From assembly GCF_003334305.1 (NCBI RefSeq), contig NZ_QOWS01000055.1: a stretch of DNA of 2,411 bases; one strand, written 5' to 3'. Made by a program: the position numbers and the translations under genes. The stretch comes from Escherichia coli (GTDB lineage Bacteria > Pseudomonadota > Gammaproteobacteria > Enterobacterales > Enterobacteriaceae). The notes below the pieces were generated by a model. That model was not told where the DNA came from. It worked only from the letters and a program-made list of their open reading frames with translations, and searched no databases. This document shows, in pieces, positions 250-2,411 of this stretch (positions are counted from its first letter, which is position 1; every line of letters begins with the position of its first letter).

Positions 250-1032
250 ATGGAAACGAAGCAAAAAGAGCGTATCCGACGTTTGATTGAAATACTTAAG
301 AAAACCGACAGAATCCATTTGAAAGACGCGGCACGAATGCTGGAAGTTTCTGTAATGACTATTCGTCGCGATCTCCATCAGGAATATGAACCTCTGCCAC
401 TGACCCTACTGGGTGGCTATATTGTAATGGTGCATAAACCCGCACCATCCATGCCAGTAATCCAGGACGTTCCGAGAAATCATCGTGATGACTTACCTAT
501 TGCAATTCTGGCCGCCGGAATGGTTAATGAAAATGATCTGATCTTCTTTGATAATGGCCAGGAGATACCGCTCGTTATAAGCATGATCCCGGATGCAATC
601 ACCTTCACTGGCATCTGTTACTCACATCGTGTCTTTGTTGCGTTGAATGAAAAACCTAATGTGACAGCAATACTTTGTGGTGGTACGTATCGTGCCAGAA
701 GTGATGCTTTTTACGATGCCAGTAACTCTTCGCCATTAGACTCTCTCAATCCGCGAAAAATATTTATTTCCGCCAGCGGTGTACATGATCACTTTGGCGT
801 CAGCTGGTTTAATCCCGAAGATCTTGCCACTAAGCGTAAAGCGATGGCCCGTGGACTAAGGAAAATTTTGCTCGCCCGCCACGCCTTGTTCGATGAAGTA
901 GCCTCTGCCAGCCTCGCACCGCTCTCTGCATTTGATGTTCTGATTAGCGATCGTCCGTTACCGGCAGATTATGTTACGCACTGCCGGAATGCTTCTGTAA
1001 AGATCATTACACCTGATTCAGAAGACGAATGA
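250..1032 (+). CDS. DeoR-family transcriptional regulator (N-terminal DeoR-type helix-turn-helix, C-terminal DeoR-like sensor domain)
   Basis: Uninterrupted 260-codon frame ending at TGA 1030..1032. The N-terminus (KERIRRLIEILKKTDRIHLKDAARMLEVSVMTIRRDL) fits the DeoR HTH signature, including the characteristic TIRRDL motif. The C-terminal part (ILCGGTYRA...IFISASGVHDHFGVSW...KRKAMARGLRKILLARHALFDE...FDVLISD) fits the DeoR C-terminal sensor fold. The ORF track starts at TTG 247, but ATG 250 sits 7 nt after a GGAG core and is the more likely start. It may be a yfjR-like island regulator of Enterobacteriaceae; that is from memory only and unverified. Confidence 0.9.
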   Translation: METKQKERIRRLIEILKKTDRIHLKDAARMLEVSVMTIRRDLHQEYEPLPLTLLGGYIVMVHKPAPSMPVIQDVPRNHRDDLPIAILAAGMVNENDLIFFDNGQEIPLVISMIPDAITFTGICYSHRVFVALNEKPNVTAILCGGTYRARSDAFYDASNSSPLDSLNPRKIFISASGVHDHFGVSWFNPEDLATKRKAMARGLRKILLARHALFDEVASASLAPLSAFDVLISDRPLPADYVTHCRNASVKIITPDSEDE

Positions 1033-2020
1033 CTTACTGAAAAAACACCGTACTCTTGTTAAACATCGTCGGATTGGACTGATTACGTTGCACTTTCATC
1101 ACATATTCCAGTTTATCAATTTGGCTTATCATCTACTCCAGACGCTGGTCATCATTGACCAATAGTCTGATATGGCTTTTGTCGCGGTCCTGAATCGGCA
1201 GGCAGAAAATGACTTCAACGTTAAAAGGGCGACGGGAAAAAGCCCACAAAGGTGAGTCATTACGCCCGGATAATAAACAGGCTCCTCCCTGTTATGGAAT
1301 CCGTTGTATTGTCCATAATGTCTGGGTTTTTAATGCACACTGGATAACAACCGGACGAATCTTCAAATATCACTGGTGCTGACAGCCGGTTTGAATTCAT
1401 CTCACAACCCTGTATAGAGCGAATCTCCTGCCTGCGCGTCACTCCACTCCATGGTATCAACTTCACACTCTTTATCTGCGGCTAGTTTCAGTCACCAGAT
1501 AAGCATCGACTATGAAAGGTGAGCCATGACAACATAACGTTGGTAACGCTCTGATGCCTTAACGGAAGATGCCTGCCACCACAGGGAATGTAAACGACTG
1601 AAGTGTGGCCTTTAATGCCGTGAACGGCTCATGGTCTCCTGGCACGGTTGCCGCCCCAACCTGTAACAACATTCCACAGTACAATGTCTGTCAGAGCCGG
1701 AGCCTCCCATGCCTGTTGTAGTAACTCTACCAGTTACGAACATCCTTCCTCAAAAGTGTTGTCGTATCTCGCATGGAAGAAAAGATCCTGACTAAGCAGC
1801 AACACACAACGTATTGCGGAACCTGCATGTTTTTCCTGTAACTAGTGTATTACGACATATGGTAATAGCTACCTGTGTGGTTTCGCTGGATAACAAGGGG
1901 ATTTATTCGCAAGTAAAATGCCTGATAAAATACACGAATCTAGTAATCATCAATATTTACTCTGGTCGAATGAAGTGTGAAGTGGATTGCCAGCAGATGC
2001 GGCCAGTGATCCACCGCCTG

Positions 2021-2048
2021 CTTAACAAAACGCCGGATTTCCCCCGGC
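2021..2048 (-). terminator. Candidate Rho-independent terminator for a minus-strand transcript
   Basis: Perfect all-GC 5-bp stem GCCGG (2032..2036) / CCGGC (2044..2048) with a 7-nt loop. On the minus strand this hairpin is followed directly by GTTTTGTTAAG (reverse complement of 2021..2031), a U-rich tail. On the + strand no T-run follows it directly. Confidence 0.3.
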
Positions 2049-2231
2049 TCTGAAAGTAAGGCTTCGGTTATTTGCACTATTTTATCTCTGTTGAATTTGG
2101 TTAAGTCGGTGCAGACTCATCAACACAAGTACGGTTCGATGCAAACAGCTGTGACTGGCAATATGAAAGGAATGATGAATCAGTCAGGATGACAAAGTGC
2201 CGGCTGACCGGAGGGGACGCAGGAAGATTCA

Positions 2232-2411
<180 letters not shown>

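Follow-up and report, generated by a model that had tools for sequence, protein, structure and literature searches.

The 57-codon open reading frame (ORF) at positions 1209–1382 is very probably an accidental frame that spans the junction between an antisense ilvN pseudogene and genomic-island DNA, and not a gene. It lies within a 2,411-nt stretch of Escherichia coli DNA, all of which was analysed and which is referred to here as the window. The initial annotation of the window had called the ORF unlikely to be real, and this verdict is borne out by neutral variation among its alleles, by the existence of broken alleles and by a length at chance level. We infer that no functional peptide is made from it. 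This verdict disposes of a false lead and accounts for the entries for this peptide as a 'hypothetical protein' in some databases. It also illustrates how the decay of a pseudogene, together with a rearrangement junction, can yield a small ORF that looks plausible.

The ORF runs on the plus strand from ATG 1209 to TGA 1380–1382 and encodes 57 amino acids. Its listed coordinates and translation are identical to those first reported, and several other particulars of that description hold. An SD-like GGCAGG is present upstream (1197–1202, six bases 5' of ATG 1209), the frame uses the rare codons ATA (once), CGA (twice), CGG (once) and GGA (twice), and it overlaps a listed ORF of the minus strand (1260..1466, 68 amino acids, GTG start). 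The length of the ORF is no more than is expected by chance. In random sequences generated from an order-1 Markov model with the composition of 1033–2411, ATG-initiated ORFs of at least 57 codons occurred at a mean of 2.5 per sequence, and 93% of the sequences contained one or more. The real stretch 1033–2411 (~1.4 kb) contains three.

A gene remnant lies opposite the beginning of the ORF. Nucleotide identity, tblastn and the PGAP annotation identify 1034..1271 on the minus strand as ilvN', a 5'-truncated and frameshifted pseudogene fragment of the acetolactate synthase small subunit. In its DNA the fragment is like K-12 ilvN, sharing 89% nucleotide identity with codons 18–97, but it differs in being truncated at codon 18, frameshifted, interrupted by an internal stop and without ilvB, and it is carried on the strand opposite the ORF. 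A tblastn search with K-12 IlvN matched 1034–1271 with an E value of 8e-35, the match being split across two frames. By local alignment, one base is missing near 1237 (a 1-bp deletion), and a CAG->TAG change near 1134 creates an in-frame stop. PGAP annotates 1034–1260 as a pseudogene ('frameshifted; internal stop') with the product 'acetolactate synthase small subunit'. The fragment thus combines homology to ilvN with disabling lesions, the two marks of an IlvN pseudogene. Given that 1034–1271 is a minus-strand ilvN', the first 63 nt of the ORF (codons 1–21) are its reverse complement. The initial annotation, accurate as to the frame itself, missed both this pseudogene antisense to the 5' third of the ORF and the rearrangement junction within the ORF.

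The junction became visible by comparison with other enterobacterial genomes. The gene next to ilvN', convergent with it, encodes a DeoR-family transcriptional regulator (250..1032, plus strand, WP_001347893.1). A search of 100,044 species genomes with this protein as the query gave 42 loci with 63–85% amino acid identity, including loci from Citrobacter, Raoultella, Salmonella arizonae and diarizonae, Klebsiella indica, Pseudocitrobacter, Trabulsiella and Leclercia. Intact convergent ilvN-ilvB genes directly follow the DeoR gene in 34 of the 42 loci, all from other Enterobacteriaceae. When the window was compared with the 42 loci by blastn, homology began at about 234 and ended at 1269–1271 wherever ilvN was reached. 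Therefore 1271/1272 is a rearrangement breakpoint inside ilvN codon 18, where synteny with the ancestral DeoR-ilvN-ilvB order ends, and codons 22–57 of the ORF lie in unrelated DNA.

The intact loci also show where the frame begins. The triplet orthologous to ATG 1209 is ATG in 26 of the 34 intact ilvN genes and ATA or ATC in the other eight. The antisense frame in intact ilvN (MPSTLxARRAxxPQTWV...) is 15–109 codons long, and the window peptide diverges from it after about residue 10 because the 1-bp deletion of the pseudogene shifts the frame. The ORF therefore overlaps a gene remnant on the opposite strand and depends on the disabling mutation of that remnant, as is characteristic of a spurious antisense or junction ORF. 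Two accidents of decay, the 1-bp deletion and the junction, thus account for the 57-codon frame.

Homology ends elsewhere in one lineage (allele L020, strain 1105 and 11 others), in which similarity to the window stops at 1384, two bases past the stop codon of the ORF. After this point an AlpA-type regulator module replaces the window sequence (1384/1385 in the window, 1545 in L020). Given that the breakpoints at 1271/1272 and 1384/1385 differ, 1272–1384 is a 113-nt segment between two breakpoints. Separately, a motif at the first junction, GCCCGGATA, is like the 5' end of tRNA-Phe. A tRNA or att remnant was rejected here because ARAGORN found nothing and the motif belongs to ilvN.

The following sequence of events best explains this arrangement. 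A block comprising the DeoR regulator, sugar-utilisation genes and the adjacent 3' part of ilvN probably came from another enterobacterial chromosome and now resides in the pheV-side island of E. coli, with a gene set that resembles the deoK deoxyribose operon. The ilvN gene was broken at codon 18 and fused to unrelated DNA of the island, and the fragment also gained the 1-bp deletion and the stop codon. An ATG antisense to ilvN, which is also present in intact genes, opens a frame on the opposite strand, and the deletion together with the new junction lets this antisense frame run 57 codons to a TGA. As a by-product, the result dates the block: its E. coli island copy retains 238 bp of the donor's ilvN, in agreement with the published idea that another enterobacterium was the source of the deoK region.

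The ilvN' fragment shares 89% identity with E. coli ilvN but only 73–77% with the ilvN genes that adjoin DeoR orthologues in other genera, and the DeoR regulator gene has 72–78% identity to those same loci. The donor of ilvN' may have been a near relative of Escherichia that has yet to be sampled; alternatively, the resident ilvN may have gene-converted the fragment.

The region of the ORF is carried by ~1560 complete genomes, in one copy each, and we aligned 13 alleles ranging from 100% to 90% identity. The frame is open and encodes 57 amino acids in the window and in alleles L007 and L013–L016. The commonest class of alleles lacks the stop codon; alleles L009, L010 and L017–L019 have TGA changed to TGC and a frame of 61 amino acids (four more). 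Allele L008 has a GAG->TAG nonsense mutation at codon 16, detected in 154 complete genomes of the ~1560 carriers, and allele L020 has a 1-bp deletion (GGG->GG, near 1324) that gives 45 amino acids, detected in 12 complete genomes of the same set. These counts are based on exact 31-mers in which any 28-nt seed must span the mutation. The frame is broken in at least 11% of carriers and open in about 89%, including alleles that are 9–11% diverged. Conservation of the frame had been suggested initially as a check on the ORF, and running it revealed that stops and indels do break the frame (the TAG at codon 16 in the 154 genomes, the deletion in the 12).

The pattern of substitutions is not that of a coding sequence. 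The 13 alleles contain 27 variable sites, distributed as 10/11/6 over the three codon positions. The changes comprise 5 synonymous, 20 missense, 1 nonsense, 1 stop-loss and 1 frameshift (an indel), and missense changes make up 20 of the 25 sense-codon substitutions. One nonsense mutation was observed and ~1.7 are expected under neutrality, given that 6.4% of the possible substitutions make a stop. In the candidate frame, the window and L009 differ with a pN of 0.120 and a pS of 0.054. The DeoR gene, used as a control, has substitutions distributed as 7/4/20 over the codon positions, a pattern usual for coding genes. No segment of the block is more diverged than the ORF (10.9%, versus 3.9% for the DeoR gene). 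Across the alleles, the ORF evolves neutrally. Nonsense, frameshift and stop-loss alleles interrupt the frame within conserved homologous DNA, and the 13 alleles contain no excess of synonymous or third-position changes of the kind that purifying selection leaves.

Variation also affects the residues that had drawn attention to the peptide. The Cys, Trp and His content had been suggested to suit a metal-binding or membrane-active peptide, a suggestion left unsupported by a set of changes in which 20 of 25 are missense and Cys33 is replaced by Tyr, Cys57 by Arg and Tyr29 by Cys. His44 and His55 are also replaced by Tyr (H44Y and H55Y, alongside C33Y, C57R and Y29C). Of the four positions at which any allele has a cysteine, three vary, and no set of Cys/His ligand residues is conserved across the alleles.

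Searches for relatives of the peptide returned no homologues beyond near-identical DNA. Every hit among 5.8 billion protein clusters has at least 91% identity, and a 24-mer of the ORF has no exact match in 100,044 species-representative genomes. NCBIfam has no match to the peptide, and PHROGs gave nothing meaningful for the peptide, its 61-amino-acid variant or the 68-amino-acid minus-strand ORF. In RefSeq/PGAP, the ORF is called in none of the 20 annotated records inspected. The initial description of the ORF as unlisted is thus correct for RefSeq/PGAP in these 20 records, but not for other, older annotations, which deposited the exact peptide (EDV67425.1, CAE85175.1 and UniRef100_Q707I0, named 'conserved hypothetical protein' or 'Uncharacterized protein'). 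Public collections list the peptide and its two main variants under 'hypothetical' or 'conserved hypothetical protein', all of them from non-PGAP annotations.

Some members of the peptide's cluster are longer. Four cluster-mates of 157 amino acids (P0002, P0004, P0017 and P0026) show W at TGA codons of the DNA. They were thus called on short metagenome contigs with TGA read as Trp, and a longer protein was rejected. These calls, which span roughly 1030–1500 of the window, are artefacts of annotation and inflate the cluster. A member of 183 amino acids (P0036) is a fusion with the OrfA of an IS3 element inserted at the last codon of the ORF in another genome.

Signals for expression of the ORF were sought on the plus strand. 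The interval 555–1890 has no sigma-70-like promoter, and the DeoR gene has no terminator-like site 3' of it, and thus read-through transcription alone is plausible for the ORF. Any transcript over it would come from the DeoR gene by read-through. The SD-like match of the ORF is passable; its duplex has an energy of -5.7 kcal/mol, compared with a median of -6.6 in 17 neighbouring genes, and 11% of the ATGs in the window have an equal or better one. The codon-usage score of the ORF is intermediate, falling at the 5th percentile of windows from real genes and at the 80th percentile of off-frame windows. Taken together, these signals are not enough to rescue the ORF.

Could the ORF be a genuine and very young small protein of E. 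coli, specific to the island, basic and rich in Cys, Trp and His, and made from the DeoR read-through transcript? We regard this as highly unlikely. The frame is open in most alleles, yet pN exceeds pS, 20 of the 25 sense-codon changes are missense, and Cys33, Cys57 and position 29 (Tyr/Cys) vary; the nonsense and frameshift alleles are moreover fixed in 154 and 12 genomes. The SD-like GGCAGG (-5.7 kcal/mol) and the lack of a terminator between the DeoR stop codon and the ORF would allow translation of a frame that hangs on a pseudogene frameshift and a junction, and several annotation pipelines have deposited as a hypothetical protein a peptide of chance-level length without relatives outside the island. 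There is likewise very little chance that the ORF is a proto-gene, that is, a junction-born basic peptide of 57–61 amino acids translated at a low level by read-through in ~89% of the carriers, tolerated and not yet under selection that can be detected. Proto-genes, or de novo ORFs arising in non-coding DNA, are reportedly a concept of Carvunis and colleagues from 2012. The ORF is like them in being restricted to a lineage, in having been made by a frameshift and a junction, and in having a possible start site and possible read-through. It is unlike them in that it has no sign of translation or selection and that about 11% of carriers retain disrupted alleles.

Two other explanations place the function outside the frame. 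The segment might act as a non-coding RNA, either as an extended 3' UTR on the DeoR mRNA or as an RNA whose 89%-identical antisense part can pair with the mRNA of the resident ilvN, a reading to which we attach a very low probability. A plus-strand transcript of 1034–1271 would be complementary to ilvN mRNA at 89% identity, and no terminator-like site lies past the DeoR coding sequence on this strand; however, species with the ancestral arrangement share the convergent layout with intact ilvN, so nothing about it is specific here, and no other part of the block diverges as fast as this segment. Rfam has no match at E values up to 1, and folding z-scores of +0.27 and +0.89 for 1345–1480 carry no structure signal. 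The plus-strand ORF might instead be the shadow of a real gene on the minus strand, either the 68-amino-acid ORF at 1260..1466 or what remains of the 3' end of ilvB and the 5' end of ilvN; the probability of this is close to nil. An overlapping minus-strand ORF does exist, and its tail, MDNTTD, slightly resembles the N-terminus of IlvN, MQNTTHD, but this likeness is not significant. The exact 68-amino-acid sequence is absent from 15 billion proteins, NCBIfam and PHROGs have no meaningful match to it, and homology ends at 1269–1271 in each of the 34 loci with intact ilvBN. Past 1272, tblastn and blastn with K-12 IlvB and IlvN give no match, and local alignment of 1272–1480 with the K-12 ilvB 3' end and ilvN 5' end scores 18, compared with a mean of 16.6 for shuffled sequences. 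An ilvB or ilvN 5' remnant past 1272 was rejected because the searches were empty and the alignment was no better than shuffles.

An accidental frame over the ilvN' junction has counterparts among known spurious ORFs. AntiFam catalogues spurious ORFs predicted antisense to genes or pseudogenes. Like these, the ORF is a short frame opposite a gene remnant that some pipelines call a 'hypothetical protein', and it is also like them in having relatives solely in near-identical DNA and neutral variation. It differs in that the first 21 codons alone are antisense to the remnant and the rest lies in unassigned DNA past a rearrangement junction. Antisense overlapping genes have been proposed in pathogenic E. 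coli from ribosome profiling, and those candidates rest on expression and phenotype data. The ORF resembles them as a small frame antisense to an annotated feature in a pathogenic-type island, but its overlapped partner is a dead gene.

The window is part of the pheV-side genomic island of E. coli. It is 100% identical to DNA of E. coli strain A7 (NZ_CP028767.1), and positions 1–2334 are present in over a thousand complete E. coli genomes; most strains match that part alone. The island adjoins yghD/gspL, and its genes are ordered pgtABCP, an aldose-1-epimerase, a fucP-like permease, a ribokinase-family kinase and the DeoR-family regulator. After the DeoR gene come the minus-strand ilvN pseudogene, then an IS3 element and CP4-type island genes. 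The DeoR-family regulator at 250–1032 is presumably deoQ. Its start is TTG 247 in the ORF list and ATG 250 in RefSeq; ATG 250 has a better-placed SD sequence, GGAGAG, with a duplex energy of -6.6 kcal/mol. A deoK deoxyribose operon has been published on the pheV island, and the set of kinase, permease, epimerase and DeoR regulator agrees with it.

Downstream of the ORF, a six-frame translation of 1261–2411 gives nothing meaningful with NCBIfam, and no function could be assigned by NCBIfam, PHROGs, Rfam (no match at E values up to 1) or ARAGORN to the stretch from 1272 to ~1700. Further on, tblastn revealed a decayed and frameshifted gene of the UCP030791 family ('inovirus-type Gp2') of a CP4-like integrative element (1704..2077, minus strand). 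Residues 1–70 of an intact plasmid homologue of 187 amino acids match 2077–1868, and residues 71–125 match 1889–1704 in another frame (E value 1.6e-33). The remnant has about 70% nucleotide identity to plasmid copies and probably extends down to about 1510. In some genomes PGAP calls, on the minus strand, a 23-amino-acid 'hypothetical protein' at 1734–1805 and a 45-amino-acid 'UCP030791 family putative phage-derived protein' at 1940–2077. Given that these are pieces of one frameshifted pseudogene, both calls are likely over-annotations.

Divergence is uneven along this part of the block. Between the window and L009/L010, 1383–1718 is 3.3% diverged, compared with 8–12.6% in the flank 1034–1382 and 7.3% in the flank 1719–2116. 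The low divergence may result from recombination mosaicism, or the tail of the decayed UCP030791-family gene may be under constraint.

A patch of ~130 nt at 1348–1476 has 74% identity (E value 5e-10) to an unannotated intergenic stretch of the IncK2/Z plasmid pSTEC1018_1, located between the gene for a TraM-recognition-domain protein (a coupling protein) and a DEAD/DEAH helicase gene. The patch has no coding conservation, Rfam match or folding signal. A structured RNA in 1345–1480 was rejected, as folding z-scores were near zero on both strands in both the window copy and the plasmid copy.

The window closes with the left end of an IS3-family insertion (2335..2411, plus strand), the transposase coding sequence of which starts at 2407 in the annotation of strain A7. 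IS3-family elements insert repeatedly in this block, the copy in the window beginning at 2335, and other alleles carry IS2, IS66 or IS3 within 1–2 kb.
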